64,000 nt of DNA from Anaerolineae bacterium (GTDB lineage Bacteria > Chloroflexota > Anaerolineae > 4572-78 > J111). A model generated the notes under the pieces. That model did not search any database. It was given only the letters and a program-made list of their open reading frames with translations, and was not told where the DNA came from. This document shows, in pieces, positions 2,739 through 33,366 of this stretch; position 1 is the stretch's first letter; every line of letters starts with the position of its first letter. Location of the stretch: the NCBI GenBank assembly GCA_020433805.1, contig JAGRBZ010000007.1, positions 249 through 64,248 on the forward strand, written 5' to 3'. The translations under genes were made by a program, and so were the position numbers.

Positions 2739-2753
2739 TTAAAGCTATGTGAG

Positions 2754-2826
2754 CGGGAGCGACGGGACTTGAACCCGCGATCTCCGGCTTGACAGGCCGG
2801 CGTGTTGACCACTACACCACGCCCCC
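2754..2826 (-). tRNA. tRNA-Asp (anticodon GTC)
   Basis: Reverse complement GGGGGCGTGGTGTAGTGGTCAACACGCCGGCCTGTCAAGCCGGAGATCGCGGGTTCAAGTCCCGTCGCTCCCG folds as a 73-nt cloverleaf. Anticodon loop is CTGTCAA and T-loop is TTCAAGT. CCA is not encoded. Confidence 0.93.
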
Positions 2827-2886
2827 AATTGAGTACCGATTAATATATTATAACGTCTATCAACCGATTTGGCAAAATTAACCAAA

Positions 2887-2957
2887 CTGGGGAACCAGGA
2901 TTCGAACCTGGATATACGGCTCCAAAGGCCGCTGTCCTACCATTAGACGATTCCCCA
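2887..2957 (-). tRNA. tRNA-Gln (anticodon TTG)
   Basis: Reverse complement TGGGGAATCGTCTAATGGTAGGACAGCGGCCTTTGGAGCCGTATATCCAGGTTCGAATCCTGGTTCCCCAG. It has the U1-A72 pair typical of bacterial tRNA-Gln, anticodon loop CTTTGGA and T-loop TTCGAAT. Confidence 0.9.
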
Positions 2958-2967
2958 CTATTTAAGG

Positions 2968-3040
2968 TGCCGAGGCCCAGACTTGAACTGGGGACCCTTT
3001 GATTTTCAGTCAAATGCTCTACCAACTGAGCTACCTCGGC
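2968..3040 (-). tRNA. tRNA-Phe (anticodon GAA)
   Basis: Reverse complement GCCGAGGTAGCTCAGTTGGTAGAGCATTTGACTGAAAATCAAAGGGTCCCCAGTTCAAGTCTGGGCCTCGGCA is a canonical 73-nt cloverleaf with anticodon loop CTGAAAA. Confidence 0.95.
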
Positions 3041-4278: not shown

Positions 4279-4494
4279 TATTTTGTCTCCTTAATATGCA
4301 ATAACTTTTTCTGTTGAGGTAGAACTGGGGGATGGTGTATGTCATTGCATAAAAGTGAGCAATTCCTTTCGTTTGGTGCCAGTGATTGACGGTGTAACGA
4401 GAGGGCTTGAGTTGTCAAGTAGATCTTTGTCAAGATAGCAAACCCTTAGAGGTGGGCAGGGTACCGAAATACCCTGCCCTAAGCTGAATAGCGA

Positions 4495-4562
4495 CAAAAC
4501 AAAAAACGGCCACCCTCGCCATGCAGGCAGGAGTGACCGTCTGGTTATCTTTGAGCTACCAT
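4495..4562 (-). ncRNA. Candidate small RNA inside the repeat (consensus-like promoter plus intrinsic terminator on the minus strand)
   Basis: Minus strand has TTGACA (4592-4597), a 16-nt spacer and TATCAT (4570-4575). A 14-bp hairpin follows (plus-strand arms 4507-4520 and 4526-4539, one mismatch), then TTTTTTGTTTTG (4495-4506). The same elements are conserved in copy B. No expression evidence. Confidence 0.3.
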
Positions 4563-4579
4563 AAAAGCTATGATAGAAT
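4551..4579 (+). promoter_or_regulatory. Candidate sigma70-type promoter with extended -10, driving a structured leader of about 175 nt upstream of the STAS-GHKL gene
   Basis: TTGAGC (4551-4556), 17-nt spacer, TGA-TAGAAT (4574-4579). The identical hexamers occur in repeat copy B (38095-38100 and 38118-38123). Hairpins lie downstream at about 4593-4613 and 4621-4656. Confidence 0.35.
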
Positions 4580-4760
4580 AGACACCAGCCTTGTCAACTG
4601 CTAAACCCAGTTGGCGGGGTTAGCCGCCGGTGAGTGTTCGTAGCACTCGCCGGTGGCGACGTGGGGTTTGCCCTATTCAACTCTGACTATATGGTACTCC
4701 TTGAATGGAGATGGGTCAAGCCTTTTTCCTACATTGATTTAGACTCGCGAACCTGCTTTT

Positions 4761-5627
4761 ATGAACCCTCAAGTCATTTTTCTTCACCCTTTGAATAAAG
4801 AACTTACCGGTGTCGAAGACTTTTACCAGCAATTGATTCAATCGTCCGGAGCGGCAAGTTTTGCTCTTGATTTCGGTCGGGTAACATATATTCAACCTCA
4901 TTACCTTATGGCCCTAAATATTGGGGTTCGTTATCTATTTCACCACAGCAAAAGCCCGATAGGTTTAAGAAATCTGAATGACCAGGTATTGTCCTATCTA
5001 GAGCGCATGAATTTTTTTTCGATCAGCAGCCAATGGATTGAATTACAGGGGAAACTTCTTGAAGATACGTGGAACCGAAATCCCGACACAGATAACTTAC
5101 TGGAATTAACGACCATTGCCAGTGAGGATGACGTTGTACAAATTGTCGAAAGAACAAGACGTGTCTGCGCTCCCCTCAACCTCTCTAACCTGCCACAGAT
5201 ATTGCAAATCCTAAGCGAATTATGTAGCAATGCTCTATATCATAGTGGTGACAACAAAAGCTGCGCTTTAATCCAGCGATATTGGCAACAAAGAAAGCGC
5301 AAAAGACGCGTCGTATGTATTGCCATCGGAGACATGGGGTGTGGAATCCGCGGAAGTCTAGCCACGCGATTTGGCGAATTCGGCAATGAACAGAGCGATT
5401 ATTTATCAGCGGCGCTTGATGGTAAGACCTCACGAGAGACAGGACGAGGGGGCTTAGGCCTGTCTACCATCGAGACAACGGTTGATCAAGAAGGCGGATA
5501 TTTGTGGCTCAGGTCCGAAACTGCGGCGATTTTCAGCCGCGGAAAATATCAGCGCCGAATATCACCTTCACTTTCCGCTATTCCTGGCGCCCAAGTTGTC
5601 GTCGAGTTTAGCGCCCCAATGAAGTAA
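4761..5627 (+). CDS. STAS-like N-terminal domain fused to a GHKL (HATPase_c, RsbW/SpoIIAB-like) ATPase or kinase
   Basis: N-terminus reads FALDFGRVTYIQPHYLMALNIG...LRNLNDQVLSYLERMNFF (STAS-like). C-terminus has N-box ELCSNALYHS, G1 IGDMGCGIRGS and G2 GRGGLGLSTI. No obvious Shine-Dalgarno. Confidence 0.75.
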   Translation: MNPQVIFLHPLNKELTGVEDFYQQLIQSSGAASFALDFGRVTYIQPHYLMALNIGVRYLFHHSKSPIGLRNLNDQVLSYLERMNFFSISSQWIELQGKLLEDTWNRNPDTDNLLELTTIASEDDVVQIVERTRRVCAPLNLSNLPQILQILSELCSNALYHSGDNKSCALIQRYWQQRKRKRRVVCIAIGDMGCGIRGSLATRFGEFGNEQSDYLSAALDGKTSRETGRGGLGLSTIETTVDQEGGYLWLRSETAAIFSRGKYQRRISPSLSAIPGAQVVVEFSAPMK

Positions 5628-5690: not shown

Positions 5691-5757
5691 GTAGTTACGA
5701 TTTCACTAATTTTAAGTGAATTGACATATAGACACAGTGAATATTCAGGGAGAAAAA

Positions 5758-6348
5758 ATGATAGGATATAACATTAGTCAATTGCAAAATGAGATCGGTC
5801 TTACAAGTGGGCTATTCATTATGCGTTCCAAGGGGGAAAAGGCCTATCCTATTTTAGAAATGCAACTGCAGAGTATCCCTGAAAACGAAGCCCTGGTGGT
5901 GTGCTTTCCCGATGATCAATTAATGGATGTTTCTTTTGCCGATGAAACCATCATCCGGTTGGGCGAAGAAATCGCTGCCAACAAATTCGATCAACGACGT
6001 TTGCTACTGAAGGGATTAACGCCAGACAGCATTGTAAATATTGATCGAGCCATTCGCGGCCAGAAACTCAAACTAGCATTTATCCATATCACTTCCACGG
6101 GGAAGTGGGAGATTATCGGGCATCTTGAACCCAGCCTGCAAGAAGTGCTGGAAATGCTGGCCAACCGCGAGCGAATAACTGCTCCCGAATTGGTTCAAGC
6201 GTTAGATTTGGCTCTCAACACCGCTAATAATCGCCTCAAGAGACTTTTTAACCAGGGCCTCATTCAACGAGAATATGAGGTGTCGGACAAAGGGCTTCTG
6301 TACTATTACCGTTTTCCAATTCCTGTTTCAGATCGAGTTGACCTATGA
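5758..6348 (+). CDS. STAS-like (DUF4325-type) domain plus C-terminal winged helix-turn-helix protein
   Basis: LVVCFPDDQLMDVSFADETIIRLGEEI... has the pattern I recall for DUF4325 STAS-like domains. C-terminal ERITAPELVQALDLALNTANNRLKRLFNQGLIQREY looks like a MarR/wHTH. Start set at ATG 5758 after GGGAGAAAAA. Confidence 0.7.
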   Translation: MIGYNISQLQNEIGLTSGLFIMRSKGEKAYPILEMQLQSIPENEALVVCFPDDQLMDVSFADETIIRLGEEIAANKFDQRRLLLKGLTPDSIVNIDRAIRGQKLKLAFIHITSTGKWEIIGHLEPSLQEVLEMLANRERITAPELVQALDLALNTANNRLKRLFNQGLIQREYEVSDKGLLYYYRFPIPVSDRVDL

Positions 6349-7496
6349 CCAAAGATGCCGATACCCTCTTCAAATATCTTGTCGCTGGACTAATTGAAGC
6401 TGCTGAAACAGATTTTCGATATCCCTATCCGCCGCTCTGGCAGCAAGCTCTGAACATGCTGACTGCCTTCCAGATACGGCATCGGACACCTATACCCAAT
6501 ACACTTACCGGGACCTTGGCATTGTTAGAAGAGCCGATAGGCGAGTGGTGGCCTGGTGAGCTGCCTGAGGCCGTTACCGCTGAATTGGATCAGGATTTTA
6601 CTTTGCTTTTTGGGGGCCAGCCCGATGACTGGGCTTATGAGTTTTTAGAGTCAGAGGGTGTAGCTGGTATGGCAACACTAGCCCAATTTCAGGATGAGAT
6701 TACGCAAACAGGAATGAAGAGACTGCGTGATCTCTACCGGTCCAATGCTGACACTCTGGGTTACGTTTATGTTGTAACCCGTCGATTTATCGTCGAAAAT
6801 CCTGTTACAACCCTGGCAAACATTCAACAGACATTAGGCAATTTACCTCTAATTCGCCTCAAACAAGTGGCCGATTTTTATGAGGCTGAAGACGAATTTC
6901 TGAATGAAGCCTTACATCAAGGCCAGTTCTGGCGGTGTCCCCATTGTCAATCAATTCTGAATTGGGTCGATGGCACTCCCCGGTGTGAGCGTCACAGTGT
7001 GTGTGGCCGTCTTACAAGCGGCTATCGTGCCTGTAAGTTGTTAGCGCCAACAGGTAACTTACTACGATTAAAGCCGAGTATGGTGCGACGGGTGTGTGTC
7101 CCGGGTTTACCAGAAGTTGAGCTGTACGATTGGGCCAAAAATTTACAAACAGCGAATTCCGGACTGGTGAGTGTTTTCCTCTGGCCAGGGGTGGACCGGT
7201 ATGATCTCCAACTTTGTTTTGCCGACAACACCTCCTGGGCGATTGATGTGAAAGATTACGCCGATCCCATCAACCTGGGCCGGCGAGTCAGTAGCCAGTC
7301 GTTCTATAACCTAGGACAACTGCGCTGGGATCAAGGATATTACGTATTTCCTCAGTATCGCGTTGATTGGAATAAAAACTATGTTGAGCTGTTTAACCGG
7401 GCTGCCGAATTATCTATCCAAGTCAAGGGAGTCAGTGAAGTGGATTTCAAGAACCTGGTTATTCGCAAACTTGCTCAATTAACCGAGGACGCCTGA
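6345..7496 (+). CDS. Zn-ribbon plus PD-(D/E)xK restriction-endonuclease-fold protein (pPIWI-RE-associated REase-like)
   Basis: FWRCPHCQS...TPRCERHSVCGR (four-Cys ribbon). GVDRYDL...WAIDVKDY gives a D...D-x-K nuclease core. ATGA start/stop overlap with the upstream gene. Confidence 0.7.
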   Translation: MTKDADTLFKYLVAGLIEAAETDFRYPYPPLWQQALNMLTAFQIRHRTPIPNTLTGTLALLEEPIGEWWPGELPEAVTAELDQDFTLLFGGQPDDWAYEFLESEGVAGMATLAQFQDEITQTGMKRLRDLYRSNADTLGYVYVVTRRFIVENPVTTLANIQQTLGNLPLIRLKQVADFYEAEDEFLNEALHQGQFWRCPHCQSILNWVDGTPRCERHSVCGRLTSGYRACKLLAPTGNLLRLKPSMVRRVCVPGLPEVELYDWAKNLQTANSGLVSVFLWPGVDRYDLQLCFADNTSWAIDVKDYADPINLGRRVSSQSFYNLGQLRWDQGYYVFPQYRVDWNKNYVELFNRAAELSIQVKGVSEVDFKNLVIRKLAQLTEDA

Positions 7497-7499
7497 CCT

Positions 7500-10400
7500 A
7501 TGTTTGACCAACAATGGTATGACTCTCTGAAACGAAAAATTAGTGCTGCCGATATTGATGCTGAAATCGATAATCCCCGCCTGCTGCTGGAGGTTGAACT
7601 CGCATTTCGGTTACTGGAAATAATCGGCTTGACCGATGAACCGGCTGACGTTATCTGGTCGCTATTGAGCACCTTACCTGTGCCTCACCAGTCACTCACC
7701 AACCTGGACAATAACCAAAAACGGGCGCTGGCCAACGCTCGGGTCTTGCTCCATTTTGGACGCTTCGCCTGGCGCGATGCGCTCTACTGGTATAGCAAGC
7801 TACCCGCTCAATGGCGCGTTTACCAGGTTGACGCAGCTCAACCACTCAGCAAACCGGCACAACGCGAACCTAACGGCCCAGCCTATGTGACCAATCGAAT
7901 AGAAATTTACGACAACCTGTTGCATAAAAAACTCAGTTACAATAAACATTCATATGTCTTGGCAGGACCCGGGCGCATCACCTTCCGCACAACCCGCCAA
8001 CGGCCCCGAACAATCACCGTTGATCTGGATGCTGAAATGGTTTCCGCTGCGACAGCCGGGGATACCATCCCTCAAATTAACGGTGAGGAACGACCCCGCC
8101 AACCAATCATTGTGGATTGGGCCGGACTAAGAAACACGGCTGATATGCTGGATCAAAGAGCCGAGGAACGAAAGCCAGATCAAAACTCTGCTAAATGGAG
8201 CTGGCTGCTTGACCAGGTTATCCGGTTGCGATTTGTCGAAAAAGATGGTGGTTTGAGCCAGCTAAATGGCCATCCGCTCAAAATCGAGGGGATGCTGCAT
8301 CTGGCGGGTATGGTTGGCGCCGGTAAATCCACCTTAATGAAGCTGTTGGCCGCGCATGGAGTCCTTTCCGGCAACTGGCGCACCACTCTGGTGGTCGGCG
8401 ATACCATTACCGCCATCAATTTAGCCGATGAATTCAATCATCTTCTCTCTGACGGCAACTCACCGGTTGCGGTGCCCCTCTTGGGTCGCACTACCCGGCA
8501 TCACCATTTGCAGCGTCTTTACCAATCGAACAGCTTCCGCCCTGACCATTGGGGCTTACGCTGGTTGGATACTCGCTGCGCCATTCAGGGTTCTGCCGTT
8601 GAAAATGATCTAAAAGATGGGCCATTACAGCCCGGCGACGAACCATGTGAACGGTTGCAAGCCGGCCCACCTGATAAACCAGGCTCACTGCTACATTGTC
8701 CGCTCTTTGCCTTATGCCCTTCACGCCAACTTTACCACGATATTCCTGAGGCGATGATCTGGATTACAACGCCTGGGGCAATGGCAACATCCCATTTACC
8801 GGTAGCAACTGACCGGCGTCAGATGCTTTTAGGAGAGATGATTTACCATGAGGCAGATCTTGTAATTTTTGACGAGGTTGATACGGTTCAGCAATGGTTT
8901 GACAACGTCTATGCCTCCGACCAGTGGCTACTCGACGGGGGCCAGGGGCTGCTTGACGTGATGGATGTCAAAACCATCGAGGGTCTCAATCGCGGCTATC
9001 AAATCTCTCGACAGGGGCAGCGCTGGATTACGGCCGAACGGAGCGCCCGGCAGGTCGCCGAACAAGTATGTAGTATGCTGCGCGACCAGGCCGTGTTACG
9101 GGAGTGGCTTGGCGACCGCTACTTCACCGCGCACCGTTTATTTTTTGATTTAGCCTATCGTTTGCAGGTGAAGAGATCGGATGCTGATCAGGAAAAGATT
9201 AATCGGGTAGCTCTGGATTATTTTGACCAATTTCGCCGTGGATCTATTCTCCATCCGGGCGATAGCTATAACAAGGAACCGCTATCTCGACTTCTGGCCA
9301 TTGCCGACCAGGTCTTGGCCCGTGGCGGCAGTCTGGTTGATCGGGAGCGGGTTTTAGCTTTATGCAAGCAATGGTTAGAAGAATATGTACCTGATTCTAA
9401 GGCCATTGCCGGCCAACTGGCGCTTGAAAAAGCAGCCTGGCTTGAGAAGTGGCAGCATCGATCAGCGCGTCGAACCAGAAAACGGCCACCCCCTATGCCT
9501 GATGACTTGGAGACGTTGGCCGTCAGGCTTGAACTGGCGATTTCGGTCGCTATCCTTGAGGAAATGGTGCGAATCACCTTTGATGGTTGGCAACATGCAC
9601 CCTTGTTTATCACCAGTCAGATTGCCGATGATTATCGCTTGAGTCGCATTCCGCGTGACCTGGCCGGTGTCTTGCCCACCTCACCCACCGGTAGTCTCTT
9701 CGGATTTCAATACCTGGAAGAAGCTGGAGCCAGCCCGGATACAGCGGATGGTGAACAAATTCCGCTGAAAGTTCGCAGATTTTCTACGTTTCAATATCGC
9801 AACATCGGCCGCTGGTACGTTGAACACTTCCATGAATTACTCAGTGACCTTGGTTATCCCGGCCCTAATGTGTTGGCCATGTCCGGCACATCCTGGCTTC
9901 CTGACTCGGCAACATGGCATTTTTCGGTTGAACCCGCCGCTGTCCTGGAACCCACAGCGCACAGCCAGCAGGCCATCGAGACCAGCAAATTCTTCTTCAG
10001 GCCGGCTCGAGACAACGAGGGTAAACCCATCTTTGTGTCAGGCAGCGGGCGTTTGAGACAACAACTGGCTTTATTGGGCAAACAGTTGGCCGGCTATCCA
10101 GCCCCAAAGCAAGCTTTTTTGCTGCAAGAGTTGAAACGCCTCACCAATTTAGCCGAGCAGCAGCCGGAAGTGTGGGGCGACCGGGTTCGCCTACTCCTGT
10201 TCGTAAACTCATATGAGCAGGTACAGCCGGTGATGCAAGCCATCTTGAGCCAGCAGCCAGAGTGGAACCAGTTAACCTATGGACTGGTACGCAGTGCCGT
10301 CCCAACCCAGTCGAATGAATGGCAGTGGGCCAGGCTGGATGGTCAGACATTTATTAAGCATGATATAGAGCAATTCGGCCAGACTCAGGGTAACATTCTG

Positions 10401-11000
10401 GTTGCGCCGCTGCAGGCCATTGGTCGTGGTTACAATATTCTCAATGAAAACAATGTTGCTGCCTTTGGAACCGTATTATTTTTGACCCGACCAATGGCGC
10501 CTCCCTTTGATATGCAGGCTCGAGCCCAATGGCTAAACTGGTGTGTCCTGAACAAATGCGGCAGATCTGACGATGAACTTTGGCAGGGAAAAGTAGGCTT
10601 TCACGAAAAAGCTGAAGTCTTGCGTGACTGGGCGCATGATGAGTGGGATAGCTATGATGCCGCCCGCCGATATCAGGATTTGGATGATAAGCGCAAAAAC
10701 GATCTAGCCGCCTCGATGGCCGGTCTTATTATTCAAGCTTGTGGCCGGTTGTTACGGGGAGGTGTTCCGTTTCGGGCGTATTTCGTTGACGCGGCCTGGG
10801 CACCCCATACGGCCACAGGCAATAGGTCTGACACACTTGAAACCAGTCTACTCTTGAGGATGATTTACCTACTAAACTATTATTGTCAAAAGCCAGTCGG
10901 ACAAGCTTTATACGCACCCTTGGCCAGGTCTTTAAACCAAATAGAAGGGCTGGCCAAGCTTGAAACCATTAAAGATGAACCACTTTTAGTAATGGAGTAA
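7500..11000 (+). CDS. Large SF2 (DinG/XPD-like) helicase, pPIWI-RE-associated type
   Basis: Walker A AGMVGAGKST (nt 8304-8333). Walker B VIFDEVD (nt 8862-8882). Motif VI-like QACGRLLRGG lies near the C-terminus. Four Cys (aa 360, 383, 400, 406) lie between motifs I and II. Starts 4 nt after the previous stop. Confidence 0.8.
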   Translation: MFDQQWYDSLKRKISAADIDAEIDNPRLLLEVELAFRLLEIIGLTDEPADVIWSLLSTLPVPHQSLTNLDNNQKRALANARVLLHFGRFAWRDALYWYSKLPAQWRVYQVDAAQPLSKPAQREPNGPAYVTNRIEIYDNLLHKKLSYNKHSYVLAGPGRITFRTTRQRPRTITVDLDAEMVSAATAGDTIPQINGEERPRQPIIVDWAGLRNTADMLDQRAEERKPDQNSAKWSWLLDQVIRLRFVEKDGGLSQLNGHPLKIEGMLHLAGMVGAGKSTLMKLLAAHGVLSGNWRTTLVVGDTITAINLADEFNHLLSDGNSPVAVPLLGRTTRHHHLQRLYQSNSFRPDHWGLRWLDTRCAIQGSAVENDLKDGPLQPGDEPCERLQAGPPDKPGSLLHCPLFALCPSRQLYHDIPEAMIWITTPGAMATSHLPVATDRRQMLLGEMIYHEADLVIFDEVDTVQQWFDNVYASDQWLLDGGQGLLDVMDVKTIEGLNRGYQISRQGQRWITAERSARQVAEQVCSMLRDQAVLREWLGDRYFTAHRLFFDLAYRLQVKRSDADQEKINRVALDYFDQFRRGSILHPGDSYNKEPLSRLLAIADQVLARGGSLVDRERVLALCKQWLEEYVPDSKAIAGQLALEKAAWLEKWQHRSARRTRKRPPPMPDDLETLAVRLELAISVAILEEMVRITFDGWQHAPLFITSQIADDYRLSRIPRDLAGVLPTSPTGSLFGFQYLEEAGASPDTADGEQIPLKVRRFSTFQYRNIGRWYVEHFHELLSDLGYPGPNVLAMSGTSWLPDSATWHFSVEPAAVLEPTAHSQQAIETSKFFFRPARDNEGKPIFVSGSGRLRQQLALLGKQLAGYPAPKQAFLLQELKRLTNLAEQQPEVWGDRVRLLLFVNSYEQVQPVMQAILSQQPEWNQLTYGLVRSAVPTQSNEWQWARLDGQTFIKHDIEQFGQTQGNILVAPLQAIGRGYNILNENNVAAFGTVLFLTRPMAPPFDMQARAQWLNWCVLNKCGRSDDELWQGKVGFHEKAEVLRDWAHDEWDSYDAARRYQDLDDKRKNDLAASMAGLIIQACGRLLRGGVPFRAYFVDAAWAPHTATGNRSDTLETSLLLRMIYLLNYYCQKPVGQALYAPLARSLNQIEGLAKLETIKDEPLLVME

Positions 11001-11006: not shown

Positions 11007-13613
11007 ATGAATAAAACAGAGTCGCCGCATCACATTCAGGAATTCCGATTCCGCCTAAATCTGGAAGCATTGGCCAATGAACAGATTGCTTATCTGCGCT
11101 TTCCGTGGGAGAGAGCAATCAATGAATTTACTGACTTCATTAAACAGAAATTGGGCAGAGAGTTAGTTTTCAAAGAGCTGCCGCCATTTCAACCGCTCAA
11201 TGCAGCACTGGTCGCCTTATCAACGACATTGGTTCACGGATTTGAAGAGTATAAATTTGATGAGCAAGAAATCAGATATCTGGTGCTGCCGGCCGACGCG
11301 CCACGACCTCAACTAAGCCAGCTCATAACCGTCGTCCAATTATGGATCGCAAATTGGATTGACAATAAATTCAAGAATGAGATAACTTTGCCCGAAGTGC
11401 AGCAGGCCCGCCTGGAACTGCTAGAGAAGCTCGACCATCCCGAATATGAATGGGAAGAGGCAACGGTTGACTCTCTCTGGCCCCACAGCCCCTTTATTTA
11501 TCAGGCCATTCCCAGCCTATTGGCCAAGTATCTGGTCAAACAGAAGCTGACAATTTTCGACCTCCATCCAGAATGGCGCTTGAGTAAAGGAACGGGAAAG
11601 GGGCATTTATCTCTGGTCAGCCAGCCGCTCCCTTCGGAAGCGGGTAATGACAGATTTGCTTATGTTATTGAATTCATAGTTCAAACCGTGCCGGGCGATG
11701 CCGAGCCTTATGTGGACCTTCATGTTCATTGTCGCCGCTATATGAGCCGTCCGGTTGAGTGGCTGAATCGCAATCGCAAGTCAACAGTTATGGTTGGGCT
11801 TAAGGCACCGCTCATTGATGGTTGGCCTTTCGACACAACCCTTATCCCCTTACAGGTAGACAGACGCGGTAAAAAATTCTTTTGGCGCGATCAAACCCGT
11901 CACCTGCTTGAACAGGTCAATATCCGGGCGTTAATTGAGCCTGATAAATTGGCTGCTAATCCATCAGAACACTGGTTTGCCAATGACCGGGATAAATACT
12001 TCTGGATATACGCCCAGGGTATGCAGCCCGACCATGAATTAGGAACCGGCTTCAGCCCCGGCGAAATGTATGAGGTATTTCAACAGGTAGCCCAATTGAC
12101 AGACTCTATCCTCACGCCAATTGCACCACTTGAACGAGACATGGAAACCTTCGGACGCAGACGCACCGCGGCAGAACTGACGGTTTGGGAACTGATGGAC
12201 GAAGGCAACCGGCAGGTTCGAATATTCGGCCAGTCGCGAAAAACTGAAACGCTTGATGACGCAGCCAAGCAGCAGTTAAAAATCGAGTCCGGGCGGAGAG
12301 CCGTTGATGATAAACCTCTCTATTTGCTGCTGCTGTATCGCGCTGAAAATAGCCGCCTCGAATTACGGAAGCATGCGCAAATGTGTTTGCCTGCACCTGA
12401 TCTAGATACTCATATCATCGAATTACAGCTTCAGGATGAGTTGACAGCTCCTTTTCCGGAGGATGCTTCTACCATAGAGTTCCAGAGGCGTCGGCGTCTC
12501 TGGAAGAAGTTCTTGCAGGAGATAGAATTTCCTAATAACGCCAAAATAATGGCCTTAATTGAAGTCCCGCGTGACAACTTGTCAGATGACGATGAAAAAG
12601 TAAAAACCGTAATCCGTGAGGTGTGTATGCATCTTGATATCGGTTCGCAGTTATTTGTGCAGCCCAAGGCTGAATTCAAGTCAGGTGATACAAGCCGCGC
12701 CAAAAACGCCGTGACAGATTTGCTGGTGCGACAAACCGGCACAATTTTCGGCGACATTCGCGATATCTACCGGGCAGCTGGCCTGCCCGGCGAGGTGGCT
12801 GACCACCTGACGGTCATCGGTCTATACCGCCGCCGGACAAGCGGATCGAAAGCCATTGATTTTCCATTGGCGGTACGGGTTCTCCCCATTGGCAAGGTCG
12901 AGATGTGCTGGCCCGGCCAGATATGGTTGGCCTATCATCAGGCTACCCTGAGTTTGGGCCAGTTCTTCAAAAGCAATCGAGGGAAAAAAAATCACCGGCA
13001 AATTCTCAATCTGAATGGCGATAAAATCTCATCGTTCATTGAGCAGGTTTGCCTGATGACCAACAGCCCAACCCTGGTTCTGGTTGAAGCCCACGATTTT
13101 CGCGGTGTGTGGCCGACACTGCAAAATCCGAAGTTGCTGCGTAATGAGCTTCGCCTGACCACCGGGGATATTTTGACGCCCGCCTCAGTGCCAGACCTAC
13201 GGCTTATTCGCCTACGCACCAGTGAGAATCACGAAACACCTCAATACGTGCGGGTGTTTCCAGGCAATGACGCCGGTCAATATGAGGCTGGACGCAGCGC
13301 GGAAAGTCTACACTTGGCCCGCACGTCTGGCCCTTTCCCGATGTTTCACAGCATTGGCCAGATGCCCCAAACCACCACCTATCAAAAAGCGACTGACCCC
13401 AAGACCCAGAGTGGTGGGGATCGCTCATACAAACACCAACGTATTATGGAAATCATCCCCATTTTTATGCAACCCGGCGACCAGGAACAGGCTTGGGCGC
13501 GGCTGGTAGACTACTTGCGCTATACCCCGGCATGGCACGGCGGCGACCCCACGCTCCCTTTACCCAATCACCTCGCGGTTAACGCTCTGCAGGATGTGCT
13601 GTGTTTACTATAA
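11007..13613 (+). CDS. pPIWI-RE-like prokaryotic Argonaute/PIWI-family protein (RNaseH-fold C-terminal domain)
   Basis: Position is downstream of the REase plus DinG-like helicase. C-terminal strings PTLVLVEAHDFRGVWPTLQN, LIRLRTSENHETPQYVRV, KHQRIMEIIPIF and DPTLPLPNHLA match my memory of the pPIWI_RE RNaseH domain. Not verified by any search. Confidence 0.6.
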   Translation: MNKTESPHHIQEFRFRLNLEALANEQIAYLRFPWERAINEFTDFIKQKLGRELVFKELPPFQPLNAALVALSTTLVHGFEEYKFDEQEIRYLVLPADAPRPQLSQLITVVQLWIANWIDNKFKNEITLPEVQQARLELLEKLDHPEYEWEEATVDSLWPHSPFIYQAIPSLLAKYLVKQKLTIFDLHPEWRLSKGTGKGHLSLVSQPLPSEAGNDRFAYVIEFIVQTVPGDAEPYVDLHVHCRRYMSRPVEWLNRNRKSTVMVGLKAPLIDGWPFDTTLIPLQVDRRGKKFFWRDQTRHLLEQVNIRALIEPDKLAANPSEHWFANDRDKYFWIYAQGMQPDHELGTGFSPGEMYEVFQQVAQLTDSILTPIAPLERDMETFGRRRTAAELTVWELMDEGNRQVRIFGQSRKTETLDDAAKQQLKIESGRRAVDDKPLYLLLLYRAENSRLELRKHAQMCLPAPDLDTHIIELQLQDELTAPFPEDASTIEFQRRRRLWKKFLQEIEFPNNAKIMALIEVPRDNLSDDDEKVKTVIREVCMHLDIGSQLFVQPKAEFKSGDTSRAKNAVTDLLVRQTGTIFGDIRDIYRAAGLPGEVADHLTVIGLYRRRTSGSKAIDFPLAVRVLPIGKVEMCWPGQIWLAYHQATLSLGQFFKSNRGKKNHRQILNLNGDKISSFIEQVCLMTNSPTLVLVEAHDFRGVWPTLQNPKLLRNELRLTTGDILTPASVPDLRLIRLRTSENHETPQYVRVFPGNDAGQYEAGRSAESLHLARTSGPFPMFHSIGQMPQTTTYQKATDPKTQSGGDRSYKHQRIMEIIPIFMQPGDQEQAWARLVDYLRYTPAWHGGDPTLPLPNHLAVNALQDVLCLL

Positions 13614-13640
13614 TCATCAAGCTTAATCCAGGAGACCGAG

Positions 13641-16600
13641 ATGTCTATCCATCTCTACCTTGCCCCAGCCGGGGCCGGTAAAACCGATTATCTAATTGAG
13701 CAAGCTCGCCAGGTCGTTGGGGATTTGTCCACAACCGTGCGCGTTTGTGTCCCCAGCGGACTACAAGCCCAAGTCTGGAAACGCCGATTAGCGGCAGCGG
13801 GTGGCGCGTTGGGGGTGCGGGTGCAGCTCTTTTATGAACTCTATATGGAATGCCTGGATGCCGTGGGCCAGCCATACATCGAACTGAGTGAGCCGGTCCA
13901 ATACCGGCTGCTCCAGGCCACTGTTGATTCCCTGCCCTTAACCTACTACCGTTCCCTCAAACGTCGTCCCGGCTTTATCTCGCTCCTGCAAAATCTCACT
14001 GGAGAATTGAAGGCCGGGCGAATTGATCCTGATTTATTGTCAGCGGCCATCACCCAATTGGGCAACGAAAATCGCCTGGCCGAACTTGCCCAAATTTACG
14101 CCGCTTATCAGACCCAATTGCAGGCCCGTCACTGGACCGACCGGCCCGGCCTGGGCTGGCTGGCCGTAGAAGCGCTGGCTAACCGGCCAACTCTGCCCAC
14201 TTTTACCGACTCCGTGCTGTGGGTGGACGGGTTCGACAACTTCACACCCATGCAGATTGATTTTTTGAAAGAAATCGCTCAGCAGACCCAGCAATTGGTC
14301 ATTACCCTGACCGGCGCTGGCAGACCTACCCGGCCGCTGGTGCATCGTCGTTTCGAGCAAACGCGAGCGCAGCTGGAGGCCGCCCTGCACGTTTCAGCGG
14401 AGCCGCTACCGGTCAGACCACGCCGTTGCCACCCGGTGCTAGCCCACCTGGAAGCCCAGCTGTTCAAGTCGTCTCAGGACTCAGTGCTCGGCGTCGAGGT
14501 CGTGAGCCTGATTGAAGCACCCGACCGGGTCGGCGAGGTGCGCAGCGCGTTACGCTGGCTCAAAAAACGGCTCATTATGGACGGCTTGTCTCCCGGTCAG
14601 GTCGCCCTACTGGCCCGCTCAATTACCCCTTATCGCCCCTTCATCAGCCAAGTCGGGGTCGAGTTTGGTTTGCCCCTGCACCTGATGGAGGGTCAGCCGT
14701 TGCGCAGTAATCCGGCCGTAGCGGCCTTGCTCAATCTGTTGCGGCTGATGCTGCCAGCTTCGGCGACCGATCCCAGGCCGGCGCTGCCTTACCCGCTGGT
14801 ACTTGAAGCCTGGCGGTCACCCTATTTCGATTGGGCAGCCCGGCCAACCCTCGAAGCCGAAGAACCGATTGGAATTGAAGCCGGTGACGCTGCGTTACTG
14901 GCCAACGTTGCCCGCCAGGGGCAGGTGTTGGCGGGCCAGCGCCAATGGCTGGAGGCCTTTGAGCCGTTGACCCGGCGAGACCAGGCTGCCCAAGAAGTCG
15001 GGTTGCCTGACGCCGCCACCGCCCACAAACTTCAGACCATATTTGAGCGATTTATCCGGCGCCTGACGCCGCCGGAGGCAGCAGTTAGCCTGCGCGACTT
15101 TGCCGGGTGGCTGGAAGACCTAATCGGGGCCGACCCGCAGTTTGCGCTACGTTTTTCACAACCCGACCCGGCTGCCCCCATCTCGCTCAAGGTGATTGAC
15201 CGTATCCGGGCCGAGCTAACGACGGCCGCCCGCGACCTGGCCGCGCTCCAGCAACTCAAAGAGATTTTGCGCGGTTTGGTCTGGGCCGAAACTGCCATTA
15301 CCCCAAACCAATCAATGACCTTTAGCCAGTTTTTTGACGAGCTGGCCGGCGCTATTGAAGCCAGCAGCTACTTGCTGCCGTATGACCCGGCTGAGGAAGC
15401 CATCCTGGTCGCCGATGTGGTTCAGGCCCGCGGGGTGCCGTTTCAGGCCGTGGCCGTACTGGGCCTGGCTGAAGGCGAGTTCCCTACCCGCTTAAGCGAA
15501 GACCCGCTGCTGCGGGACAGCGACCGCTTCCGTTTGAACCAACTGGGTATTCCGCTTCGACCTTCCACCGAAAGCGCCGAGATCGAGTTCTTTTACGAAA
15601 CTATTGCCCGACCCTGGGATCAACTCCTGCTGACCCGCCCCCGCCTGGCCGACAATGGCGCGCCCTGGCAGGCCTCCCCATATTGGGAAGAGGTCATCAA
15701 ATTGGTCAAAGTCACCCCCTTGCCCCTGACTCAGGAGCGTTTGCCCCGGCCTGACGAAGTCGCCTCCTGGCCCGAGCTGATGGAGAGTTTGGGACGCTAC
15801 GCCGGTTACGCAGTAGTCAAGCAGTGGATCGCCGAGACCAACCCCGTACGGCAGACGGCTGTGGCTGCAGCTGCCCAAACAATGGCGCAGCGATTGGCCC
15901 AGGCAACGGGCAGTCTGTTTGACGGCAATCTGCACGCCGCCACTGCTGACCTGGCCAATGAGTATGGTCCCACCAGAATCTGGAGCGCCAGCCGTCTGGA
16001 AGATTATCGCACTTGCCCCTTTCTCTTTTTTGTCAGACACCTGCTGGGCGTTGAACCTAGAGGCGAACCGGAAGAAGGGCTGGACGCCCGCCAATTGGGC
16101 CGAATTTACCACGATACTTTTGAAAAGCTTTACCAATCCGTCCTTGACCCGACTGACCTGGAGGAATTGCTGGAAGCGTTGCCGGAAATCGGCGGCGCGA
16201 TTCTGGATAAGGCTCCGGAAAAGGAAGGTTTCCGGGCAACGGCCTGGTGGTCGCAAACCCGGCAGACTATTTTGGACAATGTGCAGCGCTCATTGATTAA
16301 ATTGGCCGAACTGGCCGGCGATTTTGAACCCCTGGCCTATGAGCAGCGTTTTTTTGAACCGGACATGCCGTTGACCCTTCGCGACGGCGATGATTACTTC
16401 CAGCTGCATGGAGTGATTGACCGGATCGACCAAGGGCCAGATAAAACCCTCCGCCTGATCGACTACAAAACCGGCGGTTCTTATGGCTATGATGAGGCTG
16501 CCATTCGAGAAGGGAAAAAGCTGCAACTGCCCCTTTATGCGCTGGCCGCGCAGGAAGCGTTGGAGCTAGGCCAGGCGGTGGATGGCTTTTACTGGCACAT

Positions 16601-16823
16601 CCACCAAGCTGAAGCCAGCCGTTTTAGACTGGCGACGTTCCGAGGCGAGTTTGCCAGCGGGCCAGAGGCGGCGATGCAGGTTGCGGTTGAGAAGGCCTGG
16701 GAAGCGGTGCGGGGGGCTCGAACTGGCCACTTTACACCCCAGCCGCCGGCTGGTGGCTGCCCCACTTACTGCCCGGCCGCGAGCTTTTGCTGGCACTATC
16801 ACCCGGCCTGGGGAGGACGCTGA
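13641..16823 (+). CDS. addB: AddB/RexB-like helicase-nuclease subunit (PD-(D/E)xK nuclease with Fe-S Cys cluster)
   Basis: N-terminal Walker A APAGAGKT. C-terminal SASRLEDYRTCPFLFF, DRID...LIDYKTG nuclease core and GGCPTYCPAASFCWH (1 + 3 Cys layout as in AddB). AGGAGA Shine-Dalgarno. Confidence 0.85.
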   Translation: MSIHLYLAPAGAGKTDYLIEQARQVVGDLSTTVRVCVPSGLQAQVWKRRLAAAGGALGVRVQLFYELYMECLDAVGQPYIELSEPVQYRLLQATVDSLPLTYYRSLKRRPGFISLLQNLTGELKAGRIDPDLLSAAITQLGNENRLAELAQIYAAYQTQLQARHWTDRPGLGWLAVEALANRPTLPTFTDSVLWVDGFDNFTPMQIDFLKEIAQQTQQLVITLTGAGRPTRPLVHRRFEQTRAQLEAALHVSAEPLPVRPRRCHPVLAHLEAQLFKSSQDSVLGVEVVSLIEAPDRVGEVRSALRWLKKRLIMDGLSPGQVALLARSITPYRPFISQVGVEFGLPLHLMEGQPLRSNPAVAALLNLLRLMLPASATDPRPALPYPLVLEAWRSPYFDWAARPTLEAEEPIGIEAGDAALLANVARQGQVLAGQRQWLEAFEPLTRRDQAAQEVGLPDAATAHKLQTIFERFIRRLTPPEAAVSLRDFAGWLEDLIGADPQFALRFSQPDPAAPISLKVIDRIRAELTTAARDLAALQQLKEILRGLVWAETAITPNQSMTFSQFFDELAGAIEASSYLLPYDPAEEAILVADVVQARGVPFQAVAVLGLAEGEFPTRLSEDPLLRDSDRFRLNQLGIPLRPSTESAEIEFFYETIARPWDQLLLTRPRLADNGAPWQASPYWEEVIKLVKVTPLPLTQERLPRPDEVASWPELMESLGRYAGYAVVKQWIAETNPVRQTAVAAAAQTMAQRLAQATGSLFDGNLHAATADLANEYGPTRIWSASRLEDYRTCPFLFFVRHLLGVEPRGEPEEGLDARQLGRIYHDTFEKLYQSVLDPTDLEELLEALPEIGGAILDKAPEKEGFRATAWWSQTRQTILDNVQRSLIKLAELAGDFEPLAYEQRFFEPDMPLTLRDGDDYFQLHGVIDRIDQGPDKTLRLIDYKTGGSYGYDEAAIREGKKLQLPLYALAAQEALELGQAVDGFYWHIHQAEASRFRLATFRGEFASGPEAAMQVAVEKAWEAVRGARTGHFTPQPPAGGCPTYCPAASFCWHYHPAWGGR

Positions 16824-19800
16824 TGGTGTTTCACCCTATCGTGCAGCAGTTATCGCCTAGTGAAGAACAAACCCCGGCTATTCTGGCTCGCAACCAGGAA
16901 GTGGTAGTCACCGCCGGCGCCGGAACCGGCAAAACCCGGACGCTGGTAGCCCGCTATCTGGCCTTGCTCAGCGAGGGAACGGGGCTGCGCAGCATTGTGG
17001 CTATTACGTTTACCCAAAAGGCGGCCCGGGAAATGCGCAATCGCCTGCGGGATGCCATTCGCGAATATCTGGACCGAACTGACTTATCCGAGGACGAGCG
17101 GGGCTTATGGCAAGCGCATTACAGCACGCTCGATGCGGCCCGGGTCAGCACCATCCACAGCCTGTGTGCCGAAATCTTGCGCGCTCATCCCGCTGAGGCT
17201 GGCCTTGATCCTCGCTTTGAAGTACTGGAGGAAGGGCTGACCAACGTCTTGCGAGAACAGGTCATTGCCGAAAGCCTGACCTGGGCGGCCAATCAGCCGG
17301 AGGTAGTCTCGCTGTTTGGGCTACTGGGCGAGGCGGTGTTGCGCCGCACCCTGGCGGTGCTATTAAACCGGCGGCTTGAAACCAGCGCGATTTTTGCCAC
17401 GATGCCGGATAACCTCATCGAACATTGGCACCAGCACCTGAGCCAGACTCAGGCCCAGGTGTTGGCCGTATTGACCAGCAGCACAGCCTGGCAGGCCAAC
17501 CTCGAAACCCTACGACAAAACGAACCAACGAATTCAGCCGACAAATTAGAAGCCCATCGCCAGACGGCGTTAGCCGTGGCGGCTAACCCGACCGGCTTGC
17601 TGGCCCATCTGGACACCATTAAGCTGAATGTTGGCAGTCAGAAAAACTGGCCAGGCGGGGCGGAACAGGTGGCTGAGGTTAAAGCAGCCTTGAAAACCAT
17701 CCGTGAGCTGTGGAAGAAAGAAAAACAATTCTTATTATTGGCCTTGAATGAATTGGACGAGACAGCAGCCGACGCCTTGCCCCGGTTGCGCCGGTTGTTT
17801 CAGTACGGCCATGATCGTTTCATTGCCCTGAAAGAAGCTCAAAACAGCCTTGATTTTGACGATCTCGAGGATAAGACCTTGCGCCTGTTACGTGACCAGG
17901 AAACGGTCCGCCAGCGTTGGCAGCGCGACATCCAGGCCATTCTGGTCGACGAGTTTCAGGACACCAATGACCGCCAGCGAGACTTGGTGGCATTGCTCAA
18001 TGGCGACCAGGGCAAATTGTTCATTGTTGGTGATGCCAAACAATCGATCTATCGCTTTCGCGGCGCTGATGTCAGCGTTTTTCGAGCCGAACGAGACGAG
18101 ATAGTGGCCCGGGGCGGGCAACACGTTCCGCTTGAAACGTCGTATCGGGCCCACAGCGATTTGATTGAGGGCATGAATGAATTGTTGGCCCCGGTGCTGG
18201 GTCGCGCTGCCGACCCGACACGCCCCTGGCTTGAGCCGTTTTCGGCGCTAGAGCCGCATCGCCAAGTAGCCGGCCAGGGCTTCACGGCGCCGCATATCGA
18301 GCTCCATCTCACGGTCGGTAGCAAAAGCGACGGTGCTCTGGACCACGCCGCCAGCGTGTTGGTCAATCGCCTGATCGAACTCGTTGAAGCAGAGGAAATC
18401 TACACCGGTGTAGGTGATAAGGCTCGCCGACTGGATTACGGCCATGTCGCCATCCTGTGCCGCTCATCCACTTCCTTCGCAGCCTATGAGGATGCGCTGG
18501 AAGCAGCCGGCATTCCGTTTTTAACGGTGGCCGGGCGGGGCTTTTATGAGCGGCCGGAAATTCGGGATTTGCTCAATGCCTTGCAAGCCATTGCCGACCC
18601 GACCGACGACTTGGCCCTGGTGGGGCTGCTCCGCTCACCGGCTTTCTCCCTCTCTGATGAAGGGCTGTATCGCCTCCACCAGGCTCGAACCCAGACATCA
18701 AGCTCATTTTGGGAAACCCTCACCTCAAGCGCACTCCATCTGTCTGAGACAGAAAAGCTGCGCCTTGATCGGACCAGGCCCATCATTGACAGGCTGCACC
18801 GCCAGGTGGGCCGTATGCCGGTCGCGGATATTCTGAAGCAATTTCTGGATGAGACGGATTACCGCGCCGCTTTGATCCAAATTGGCCAGCAGCGCAGCGC
18901 CCGCAATGTTAGCAAGTTGCTGGCCGATGCCAACACCGCGGAGTTAGTCAGCGTCAATGAGTTTCTAGCTTATATTAATAACTTGCGTGACAGTGGTAGT
19001 CGTGAAGGTGAAGCCCGGACTCCGGCTGAAGGGGCAGTGCAATTGTTGACTATTCACGCTGCCAAAGGGTTGGAATTTCCGGTCGTGGCCCTGGGCGATG
19101 TTAGTTACAAACCTCCAACCTGGCAAGAAATTCTAATTGACCCCGAATTGAGCCTCTTGATCCCTCATCGGGATGAGGAGAAAAATATAGCGGCCAGTTA
19201 TCTACTGGGCAATCGTACAGACAGCGAGCAGGAGGAGGCCGAATTCAAGCGCCTGCTATATGTGGCCGTTACCCGGGCCGAAGAAAAGGTGCTGTTGAGT
19301 GGAGCCATTAGCTTGAATAAGGACAATAAACTTAAGCGGGCCAGCGGCTGGTTGGCGCTGCTAGCCGAAACCGACAATCTGGGGTTGGGGGATCTGACCA
19401 TTGAACATAATGAGACCGGTGACAAAGCCATTGAATTGACATTAAGCGTGGGACAGAGTCCGGTGAGGTGCACCAATTACGAGCCGGGCTACAGTTTCAC
19501 GCAATCTGGTCGTATCGCCACGGTTGAGCCGGAGATATTGGCTCCGGTGCCGCCGCCTTTGCTCGATCCTGTGACTGTGTCAAAAGCACCGCTTCCGGCT
19601 GAGCGACTACCGCGTATCGCCCGAGTCGTTTCGTCGGCGGTACGCCGGCGTGCGCCGGCCTGGGTGGTGGGGGATTTAACGCACAAAGCCCTGGCGACCT
19701 GGCGTTTTGGCGAGGATGGCTTCGAGGTTTGGCTGGCAGCCCAGGCCCGCAATTATGGTCTGACGGATAATGAGCAGGTCACCGATGCTGTTCAAAAAGC

Positions 19801-20164
19801 GCAGCAAATGTTAGGGCGGTTCCAAAGCCACGAATTGTACCACAGGATGAACAGCGCCGAGCGCTGTCTGCACGAGGTTCCTTATAGTCTGCCCGTGGAC
19901 GGCGCCGTGGAGTCAGGCAGAATGGATGCCTTGTTTCTTCAGGACGATACGTGGCACGTGGTTGAATTCAAAACTGATGCTGTGCGTGACGAGTCTGAAC
20001 GAGAGAGGGTGCTGGCCCAAACCGATTATCTGGCCCAGGTTCAGCGTTACCGGCAGGTAATTGAGGTCATGCTGGGCCAGAAGCCGAAAATCATTTTCTG
20101 CTGGCTCAACTATGCCGGTCGGGTTGAGGTGCGGACTGATTTACGTAGTAAAACAGAAGCTTGA
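16823..20164 (+). CDS. addA: AddA/UvrD-like helicase-nuclease subunit
   Basis: TAGAGTGKT, ITFTQKAAREMRNR, ILVDEFQDTN, FIVGDAKQSIYRFRGA, TIHAAKGLEFPVV, LLYVAVTRAEEKV. C-terminal RecB-type nuclease GRMDALF...HVVEFKTD. Start set at ATG 16823 (TGATG overlap with the addB stop, GGGAGGA Shine-Dalgarno), not the ORF-track start 16787. Confidence 0.9.
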   Translation: MVFHPIVQQLSPSEEQTPAILARNQEVVVTAGAGTGKTRTLVARYLALLSEGTGLRSIVAITFTQKAAREMRNRLRDAIREYLDRTDLSEDERGLWQAHYSTLDAARVSTIHSLCAEILRAHPAEAGLDPRFEVLEEGLTNVLREQVIAESLTWAANQPEVVSLFGLLGEAVLRRTLAVLLNRRLETSAIFATMPDNLIEHWHQHLSQTQAQVLAVLTSSTAWQANLETLRQNEPTNSADKLEAHRQTALAVAANPTGLLAHLDTIKLNVGSQKNWPGGAEQVAEVKAALKTIRELWKKEKQFLLLALNELDETAADALPRLRRLFQYGHDRFIALKEAQNSLDFDDLEDKTLRLLRDQETVRQRWQRDIQAILVDEFQDTNDRQRDLVALLNGDQGKLFIVGDAKQSIYRFRGADVSVFRAERDEIVARGGQHVPLETSYRAHSDLIEGMNELLAPVLGRAADPTRPWLEPFSALEPHRQVAGQGFTAPHIELHLTVGSKSDGALDHAASVLVNRLIELVEAEEIYTGVGDKARRLDYGHVAILCRSSTSFAAYEDALEAAGIPFLTVAGRGFYERPEIRDLLNALQAIADPTDDLALVGLLRSPAFSLSDEGLYRLHQARTQTSSSFWETLTSSALHLSETEKLRLDRTRPIIDRLHRQVGRMPVADILKQFLDETDYRAALIQIGQQRSARNVSKLLADANTAELVSVNEFLAYINNLRDSGSREGEARTPAEGAVQLLTIHAAKGLEFPVVALGDVSYKPPTWQEILIDPELSLLIPHRDEEKNIAASYLLGNRTDSEQEEAEFKRLLYVAVTRAEEKVLLSGAISLNKDNKLKRASGWLALLAETDNLGLGDLTIEHNETGDKAIELTLSVGQSPVRCTNYEPGYSFTQSGRIATVEPEILAPVPPPLLDPVTVSKAPLPAERLPRIARVVSSAVRRRAPAWVVGDLTHKALATWRFGEDGFEVWLAAQARNYGLTDNEQVTDAVQKAQQMLGRFQSHELYHRMNSAERCLHEVPYSLPVDGAVESGRMDALFLQDDTWHVVEFKTDAVRDESERERVLAQTDYLAQVQRYRQVIEVMLGQKPKIIFCWLNYAGRVEVRTDLRSKTEA

Positions 20165-20425
20165 TCCTATAATAAAACTATAACATTTCCTTTGACTGAT
20201 CAGGGTGAAATCACGTAACTTAAATCTCCTACCTAATTGTGAACTATTTTAACCTAACCCAGCCTAATTCCCTGTCCGGCGAATAATCAGATTGATGTGC
20301 ACTTCTAGCGTAAACCAACTAACCTGACGTCATTGAGAAATTAACCTAAGCCTGCTACCATCTATAGTGTACTTTGTTTTTTGAGTACGGCCTCTTGAAT
20401 GGATACCAAAGAAACTGTTTGAGTT

Positions 20426-25072: not shown

Positions 25073-25130
25073 ATTTTCCTCTTGGAGATTTTTTGAGGGC
25101 ATAGCAAACCTTTTTGCACGAAACCACTGG

Positions 25131-33364: not shown

Positions 33365-33366
33365 CC

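Follow-up and report, generated by a model that had tools for sequence, protein, structure and literature searches.

The 64,000-nucleotide (nt) stretch of Anaerolineae DNA analyzed here (contig JAGRBZ010000007.1; hereafter the window, whose positions are used throughout) carries addB and addA, encoding the two subunits of the AddAB helicase-nuclease, directly downstream of a gene for a pPIWI-RE protein of the Argonaute superfamily. We are highly confident that addB and addA (addBA) are a genuine component of this gene block. They are likely an integral module of a rare pPIWI-RE variant, co-inherited with it and circulating in Anaerolineae as defense-island DNA. We favor this reading because addBA accompanied all close PIWI homologues whose downstream DNA is visible, diverged together with the other block genes, and formed a single clade. 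An earlier note on this DNA had left two scenarios side by side, recruitment of addAB into the island, or insertions on both sides of a resident housekeeping locus that left it sandwiched. Recruitment gained support from all seven close pPIWI-RE relatives and from their co-divergence; the sandwiched locus lost it.

The window is contig C1026 of a metagenome-assembled genome (MAG; G000) of 9.78 Mb in 1248 contigs, which is 89.6% complete and 2.8% contaminated, with a G+C content (GC) of 0.503.

addB and addA follow the pPIWI-RE gene in all close relatives

The block is a co-directional run of seven genes, capK-like, capS-like, restriction endonuclease (REase), DinG, pPIWI-RE, addB and addA, arranged as follows.

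4761..5627, + strand: GHKL ATPase/kinase-like gene, CapK-like and shortened (Pfam HATPase_c, 6.5e-9)
5737..6348, + strand: STAS-winged-helix-turn-helix (STAS-wHTH) repressor-like gene, CapS-like (Pfam HTH_24/MarR; matches to CapS in the PDB)
6345..7496, + strand: pPIWI_RE-associated REase-fold protein with Y and REase domains (PF18154, 8.3e-22; PF18156, 9.4e-9; PADLOC PprRE, 1.1e-21)
7500..11000, + strand: pPIWI_RE-associated DinG-type helicase with Z domain (PF18155, 1.6e-26; PADLOC PprDinG, 7.6e-126)
11007..13613, + strand: pPIWI-RE protein with X, MID and RNaseH/PIWI domains (PF13111, 2.5e-38; PF13032, 7.4e-35; PF18157, 7.1e-9)
13614..13640, + strand: PIWI-addB spacer of 27 nt, with AGGAGA
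13641..16823, + strand: addB, 1060 amino acids (aa) (PF21445, 3e-18; PF12705, 1e-39; PDB 3U44_B, 1e-18)
16823..20164, + strand: addA, 1113 aa from the ATG at 16823 (PF00580, 7.6e-61; PF13361, 1.1e-26; TIGR02784 aligned over residues 38-1098)

A search that started from AddA was misleading. None of the 80 closest AddA loci in GTDB species genomes had pPIWI-RE genes nearby; carriers of the block are rare and mostly lie outside the species-representative set. When the search started from PIWI, all 7 homologues of at least 48% identity with visible downstream DNA carried addB-addA after the PIWI gene (PIWI identity 48-90%). L122 and L142 encode the closest proteins (PIWI 85-90%, AddB 85-87%) and keep the 27-nt gap of the window. 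L126/L127 and L129 are the most diverged (PIWI 48-49%, AddB 54%), with gaps of 42 nt (L126/L127) and 51 nt (L129), so that a PIWI-addB spacing of 27-51 nt was found in four of the seven sequences. L123 and L144 (PIWI 62% and 55%, AddB 61%) have two small inserted open reading frames (ORFs) between PIWI and addB, and L143 (PIWI 53%, AddB 62%) has a gap of 424 nt.

The head of the block was likewise shared: a capK/capS-like pair stood there wherever upstream DNA was visible (L123, L144 and L126), its capK-like gene being 39-61% identical to that of the window. A metagenome scan recovered one further block locus, which ends within the PIWI gene, and a profile search for additional block members added none. 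Five distant three-gene pPIWI-RE modules of 27-38% identity lacked addAB (G407, G222, G066, G263 and P0006; four in Chloroflexota genomes, one on a metagenomic contig). No PIWI gene was present in the short flanks upstream of two loci whose AddB is 58% identical (L145 and P0012).

The block is modular at its junctions. The ORFs inserted between PIWI and addB (L123:11727-12897 and L144:8800-9970; L123 is Chloroflexota MAG BroJett011) are two AT-rich frames of 154 and 243 aa, with a GC of 0.42 and no Pfam match. L126, a metagenomic contig (SRR28719896_99), has four extra genes separating its capS-like and REase genes, one of them for a trypsin-like protease. At the other end of that locus (L126:19267-22655), addA is followed directly by genes for a DUF6361 protein, a PLD-like protein and a ResIII helicase, an Azaca-like trio that places addBA between two defense modules.

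Co-inheritance and a single origin

Across five blocks, pairwise AddB identity tracked that of the REase (r 0.93) and DinG (r 0.95) proteins, in pairs that are not independent of one another. Window DNA was collinear with L122 and L142 at 83-86% identity straight across the PIWI/addB junction. Between L123 and L144, DNA of 85% identity ended 17 nt before the addA stop codon and was unrelated beyond it; genes outside the block differed at every locus. Within this pair, the PIWI proteins (L144:6063-8669 and L123:8978-11593) were 57% identical and all other block genes 79-93% identical, with DNA homology lost over most of the PIWI gene. This pattern suggests that recombination replaced only the PIWI gene in the L144 lineage, and that addBA was kept.

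Phylogenies pointed in the same direction. The seven PIWI-linked AddA proteins formed one clade (ultrafast bootstrap (UFBoot) 99, Shimodaira-Hasegawa-like approximate likelihood ratio test (SH-aLRT) 97; 100% of bootstrap trees under a site-heterogeneous model). Both the AddA and the AddB clade were nested (95-100) within AddAB of Anaerolineae, nearest to the free-standing enzymes of G022, G001 and L145/P0012, and the close relatives of the window AddA were all from Anaerolineae/Chloroflexota. The PIWI-linked clade had a short stem, and none of its motifs was changed. The simplest reading is that a pPIWI-RE operon captured addBA once from an Anaerolineae chromosome and that the two then spread together.

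Junctions and operon structure

Two junction features described in the earlier note held on inspection, the start of addB 27 nt past the PIWI stop behind its own AGGAGA, and the coupling of addB to addA. The PIWI gene stops with TAA at 13611-13613, and the ATG of addB at 13641 is preceded by AGGAGA at 13630-13635, 5 nt ahead of the start codon. The addB stop codon TGA (16821-16823) overlaps the in-frame addA ATG at 16823 as TGATG, with GGAGG at 16812-16816. This ATG is probably the better addA start, and the TTG at 16787 given by the ORF lister is probably not the true one. Scans for sigma-70-like promoter sites were negative for the + strand from 11574 to 20333, and those for terminator-like hairpins were negative at the PIWI/addB junction. 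From this layout we infer that the seven genes are likely co-transcribed as a single operon.

AddAB retains the motifs of a working enzyme

The catalytic and cofactor motifs proved to be intact in both subunits, as the earlier note had proposed for DYK, EFK, the iron-sulfur (Fe-S) cysteines and the helicase motifs. AddB has a Walker A motif (GAGKT at residue 11), and its GVIDRI...IDYK stretch aligns with the D961-Y-K site of B. subtilis AddB (PDB 3U44_B, E 1e-18). Its C792 aligns with B. subtilis C801, and the C-terminal Cx3Cx5C cluster (CPTYCPAASFC) is kept in all relatives; a four-cysteine Fe-S cluster bracketing the nuclease domain is therefore predicted. AddA has AGAGTGKT, DEFQDT, GDAKQSIYRFRGA and TRA, with helicase motifs I, II, III and VI conserved, and a nuclease site at D1035...E1048-F-K1050 followed by a Y..Q...Y motif (Y1069, Q1072 and Y1076). 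A short stem in the PIWI-linked clade and unaltered motifs make this AddAB look like a working enzyme and not a degenerate derivative.

At 47 related loci, addB and addA are adjacent in the same order. Scores fell short of the NCBIfam equivalog cut-offs for both the Gram-positive type (TIGR02773/TIGR02785) and the alpha type (TIGR02786/TIGR02784), with 139.8 against 903.7 bits for AddB, and 336.1 against 707.65 and 289.4 against 860.75 for AddA. Within the superfamily, the window AddAB represents a Chloroflexota lineage apart from the Gram-positive and alpha equivalogs.

A sole copy that is not a housekeeping gene

Searches with tblastn and with profiles (PF00580, PF12705 and RecC) found no second AddA, AddB or RecC in the source genome, which is incomplete and fragmented. 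The only other strong UvrD-family match was PcrA (C594), and the remaining matches were weak or unrelated. The window addAB is thus the only AddAB/RecBCD-type enzyme found there, which removes the dedicated paralogue that the earlier note had considered.

That note would have taken a sole copy with conserved flanks as the mark of a housekeeping gene. The copy number misleads here, as AddAB is dispensable in this lineage: among the genomes searched, both subunits were missing from G002 and G003, which like G001 belong to the same genus as the source genome (G003 is 94% complete, in 50 contigs), and also from G008, G014 and G018. Twelve of 31 relatives yielded an AddB, as did 5 of the 16 genomes of best quality, and no RecB scored above the cut-off in any of the 31. 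The AddB of G001 lies among unrelated genes and is 57% identical to that of the window; within the genus, the control protein PcrA is 77-88% identical, and its identity declines regularly with taxonomic distance.

The flanks were not conserved either. Comparison with G001 and other relatives found no shared neighbors of addAB, and DNA synteny with G002 and G003 (78-80% identity) ended at 3041, at the edge of tRNA-Phe and next to an integrase gene. In G002 and G003, the tRNA cluster is followed by genes whose counterparts map to other contigs of the source genome, C450 and C512. A simple reconstruction of an empty site failed; the counterparts lie inside the 37.6-kb contig C450, which points to a rearrangement and not to a clean insertion. 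We conclude that the window addAB is not a conserved housekeeping locus, because several near-complete relatives lack AddAB, the flanks are not conserved, and the locus lies in non-syntenic, integrase-led DNA.

Other AddA and UvrD-type loci showed neighborhoods of their own. At L043 (9687-14786), in an Anaerolineae MAG, a DeaD orthologue 64% identical to that of the window lies convergent and directly after addA; none of the other flank genes at the 80 AddA loci was shared with the window. Four genera (L026, L027, L028 and L029, from G010, G011, G015 and G004) have a SWIM-zinc-finger SNF2 helicase gene (~955 aa) directly upstream of addB; their AddAB belongs to a different Anaerolineae clade, and the source genome lacks an orthologue of this helicase. 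A protein of ~1100 aa conserved in the family, with an N-terminal region of 500 aa of unknown type and a UvrD core (L120:5488-10172, on G002:C75; a fragment on C794 of the source genome), was rejected as a second AddA, since it lacks both a nuclease domain and an AddB partner. The next gene in G002 encodes an AAA_21/AbiEii-type ATPase, and the two may form another defense pair.

Composition does not mark the origin of addAB

The GC contrast reported in the earlier note is real. GC rises at addB and drops after addA, with 0.584 for addAB, 0.493 for the 10 kb to the left and 0.419 for the 10 kb to the right. By gene, GC and GC at third codon positions (GC3) were 0.46/0.44 for the capK-like gene, 0.45/0.46 for the capS-like gene, 0.49/0.47 for the REase gene, 0.52/0.53 for DinG, 0.51/0.55 for PIWI, 0.60/0.66 for addB, 0.57/0.63 for addA and 0.41/0.37 for the next gene, nSTAND3.

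The contrast does not, as had been supposed, indicate a separate origin. Against 3436 long ORFs of the source genome, addB and addA stood at the 86th and 77th percentiles for GC3 and at the 68th and 72nd for codon-usage fit, above average in the latter; genes of the PIWI module lay at the 7th-30th percentiles of fit, and the nSTAND3 and Mrr-TPR genes at the 2nd. With addAB inside the genome's normal range, the comparisons of GC, GC3 and codon usage do not discriminate between the two scenarios. The GC of addAB exceeded that of its own flanks in 43 of 43 related Anaerolineae loci (mean +5.5 points, standard deviation 2.9), and the excess therefore characterizes the gene family in Anaerolineae and is no trace of a separate arrival. 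The step from PIWI to addB is also seen in further blocks (0.52 to 0.64 in L126 and L129; weaker in L143, L123 and L144). Ordinary percentiles, a general GC excess and its recurrence in other blocks led us to reject composition as a marker of origin.

Surroundings of the block

The remaining features of the window are listed below.

Upstream of 3040, before the tRNA cluster: genes for DeaD and a hydrolase
2753..3040, - strand: tRNA-Asp/Gln/Phe cluster (ARAGORN), the last DNA syntenic with same-genus genomes
3190..4278, - strand: tyrosine integrase int1 (Pfam Phage_integrase, 4.6e-26; GC 0.44), at the left edge of the non-syntenic region
4452..4752: promoter-bearing repeat of ~300 nt, upstream of the operon, with a second copy at 38016-38271
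20165..20425: AT-rich intergenic region, right boundary of the conserved block, where GC falls to 0.41
20426-32090: AT-rich block with an nSTAND3 protein, an insertion sequence (IS) transposase and a 2187-aa Mrr-TPR-PIN protein
32351-34027: second tyrosine recombinase (integrase), starting at 32351, and an esterase-like gene

The two copies of the repeat (4452-4752 and 38016-38271) form a direct repeat of ~280-300 nt with 94% identity; they lie 33.5 kb apart and flank the entire defense region. Promoter-like sites fall within it at 4551-4579 (+) and 4597-4570 (-). The source genome has five copies, including ones on contigs C376, C1025 and C1153, and same-genus G001 has more. At the other end of the block, promoter-like sites at 20333-20368 could serve the gene after addA.

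Just past the AT-rich insertion, the second tyrosine recombinase and the esterase-like gene have a GC of 0.59, like addAB, which makes the region a compositional mosaic of at least four blocks. Further to the right, a gene for a B12-binding radical SAM protein (38701-40143) is a diverged second copy, with ~74% DNA identity to the copies in the genus; the G003 gene has its orthologue (95% aa identity) on contig C199 of the source genome. Three recA-family matches scored above the TIGR02012 cut-off in that genome (contigs C804, C694 and C682), which reflects either true multiplicity in a large genome or a mixture of strains.

A proposed role for AddBA, and its alternatives

Enzymes of the AddAB/RecBCD type load on double-strand ends and degrade DNA up to a cognate Chi site, and they clear foreign DNA cut by restriction enzymes. 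We propose that pPIWI-RE, DinG and the REase would recognize and cut invading DNA, and that AddBA would load on the resulting double-strand ends, or on free ends where foreign DNA is linear or replicating, and unwind and degrade it. Degradation would destroy the target and free fragments of single-stranded DNA (ssDNA). The first step follows the published prediction that pPIWI-RE directs the REase and DinG helicase to invading DNA (PMC3702460). We infer a physical or functional coupling of AddBA to PIWI-RE from the gene content, linkage, co-divergence, single origin and motifs described above. The outline, in which AddBA processes ends made by PIWI-RE, DinG and the REase and frees ssDNA, has in our judgment about an even chance of being right, and any single sub-role of AddBA has less.

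The freed fragments could serve the PIWI protein, and they could also activate the CapK-like kinase and de-repress the operon, closing a feed-forward loop. Described CapK is switched on by ssDNA of ~20 nt, and its induction is lower in a recB deletion (PMC13373217). AddBA might then be a self/non-self and signal-amplifying module, which would enter free ends or ends made by PIWI and the REase, degrade DNA that lacks the lineage's own Chi sequence, and supply fragments to PIWI (as guides or primers) and to the CapK-like switch, so that the operon would induce itself only while foreign DNA is being degraded. We offer this extended role tentatively, and regard it as possible but doubtful.

Several observations weigh against addBA as an integral, functionally coupled module. 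The seven carrier sequences represent ~4 deep lineages, all on Chloroflexota-like metagenomic contigs, and kin among them are not independent. Taken alone, the seven PIWI-linked AddB proteins form one clade with moderate support (91/75). Tight PIWI-addB coupling is not universal, the junction being interrupted in L123, L144 and L143. addBA matches host codon usage better than the PIWI genes do, which by itself would suggest a resident gene. A comparison of hosts does not discriminate the idea that the block brings AddAB because its host has none; hosts of the classical three-gene module in the phylum also lack this AddB. The guide-generating version of the proposed role is weakened because PsPIWI-RE used RNA guides in vitro (PMC10991935), and AddAB would supply none.

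Of the alternatives, the best surviving is that the block is a DNA-damage-inducible system of genome maintenance, in which PIWI-RE and DinG handle R-loops, replication-transcription conflicts and topoisomerase-poison lesions, and AddBA repairs breaks under CapK/CapS-like control. PsPIWI-RE is a guided nuclease in vitro, and its knockout in P. stutzeri is ciprofloxacin-sensitive (PMC10991935). Prokaryotic Argonautes (pAgos) raise ciprofloxacin resistance in a RecBCD-dependent manner (PMC11555693), CapK/CapS respond to DNA damage (PMC13373217), and the block supplies the only AddAB of the source genome. Against this, the operons headed by CapK/CapS are mostly immune ones (Chambers et al. 2026, PMC13373217), and the block itself holds a restriction-fold nuclease and lies among defense genes (the Avs-like nSTAND3 gene and the giant Mrr-TPR-PIN gene in the window, the Azaca-like trio in L126). 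It is also sporadic and island-borne, not conserved by lineage. We consider genome maintenance in place of defense unlikely, though the block may serve it besides defense.

Linkage could instead be passive, if the cassette landed once upstream of addBA or prefers that site and AddBA serves general recombinational repair only. Compared with free-standing homologues, the PIWI-linked AddBA has neither an accelerated stem branch nor altered motifs, some lineages have inserted ORFs or a long gap at the junction, and compositional heterogeneity persists within the block. Yet linkage was kept down to 48% PIWI identity while the outside flanks turned over fully, and the L144 lineage apparently swapped PIWI and retained addBA. 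In four of the seven sequences the PIWI-addB spacing is still short, with no promoter detected. These lineages can do without AddAB and often lose it, so long passive keeping of 6.5 kb is unlikely. Passive linkage is, in our estimate, quite improbable.

The view that a resident housekeeping addAB became sandwiched, with a pPIWI-RE cassette inserted to its left and the AT-rich nSTAND3/IS/TPR-PIN block to its right, draws on the sole copy, its genome-typical codon usage and GC3, the Anaerolineae AddAB (including that of G001) as nearest free-standing relatives, the right-hand block, which looks like a separate insertion, and the DeaD orthologue beside addA in L043, but we hold it to be scarcely credible, given addBA after PIWI in seven of seven close and co-diverging relatives, distinct PIWI-linked AddA and AddB clades, two same-genus genomes without addAB, unconserved flanks, and an AddB identity to G001 of 57% where PcrA has 77%.

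With addBA read as an integral part of the pPIWI-RE block, a single heritable unit combines a protein of the Argonaute superfamily, the helicase and nuclease that partner it, a full AddAB and a regulator of the DNA-damage type. This ties pPIWI-RE proteins to DNA-break-processing enzymes by genomic evidence, and it indicates that a mobile defense system can take over a canonical repair enzyme at its full size. The dependence of pAgos on RecBCD/AddAB, for guides and for protection from damage, has so far been seen only in trans; the block offers a defined cassette of 5-7 genes for direct study of the PIWI/AddAB relationship. If the self-amplifying role were true, this would be the first Argonaute-family system to encode its own guide-generating helicase-nuclease. 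For annotation, the lesson is that a sole copy and native-looking composition do not prove a repair gene to be housekeeping.

Comparison with known systems

The core of the block is the known pPIWI-RE island of three genes, REase, DinG-type helicase and pPIWI-RE (Burroughs, Iyer & Aravind 2013, PMC3702460). All three signature genes and their domains are present in the window in canonical order (PADLOC PprRE/PprDinG/PprPIWI). Described pPIWI-RE systems are either this three-gene unit or a solo PIWI gene, whereas the window and its close relatives add addB-addA downstream, and the block, like its kin with visible upstream DNA, is preceded by a CapK/CapS-like pair. RecB or AddA partners go unmentioned in the 2013 paper (PMC3702460), and in the open-access literature we found no paper on AddAB/RecB-type operon partners of pPIWI-RE. 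In L126, AddAB also lies beside a further defense module, the Azaca-like DUF6361-PLD-helicase trio that follows addBA.

Like CapK/CapS immune operons, the block has GHKL kinase-like and STAS-wHTH repressor-like genes at its head. Residues 30-192 of the 203-residue CapS-like protein match CapS structures (PDB 9Z72/9Z73, E 6.6e-6; 9Z71, E 3.1e-5). The CapK-like protein, of 288 aa, is shorter than described CapK; Pfam finds the GHKL domain only, and the PDB gave no sequence match. pPIWI-RE and AddAB are not among the cargoes in the main text of PMC13373217, and we found no open-access paper that describes either as CapK/CapS cargo.

The AddAB pair itself resembles that of B. subtilis (PDB 3U44, 3U4Q and 4CEH) in its two subunits and addB-addA order, in an AddA that combines a UvrD-type motor with a RecB-type nuclease, and in an AddB with Walker A, Fe-S cluster and a DYK nuclease motif aligned to the active site. 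Unlike the B. subtilis genes, the window pair lies inside a defense operon, in non-syntenic, integrase-flanked DNA and not at a conserved repair locus.

A functional parallel is with the long pAgos CbAgo, SeAgo, LrAgo and TtAgo, in which an Argonaute-superfamily protein is tied to a helicase-nuclease acting on double-strand ends, as is proposed for the window. Guide loading of pAgos depends on RecBCD and Chi, their small DNAs follow RecBCD/Chi polarity, and TtAgo co-purifies with AddAB (PMC11555693). PIWI-RE is a separate and distant PIWI family relative to the long pAgos. The helicase-nuclease of the latter is the host's own and is encoded elsewhere, whereas the block in the window encodes AddAB in the same predicted operon.

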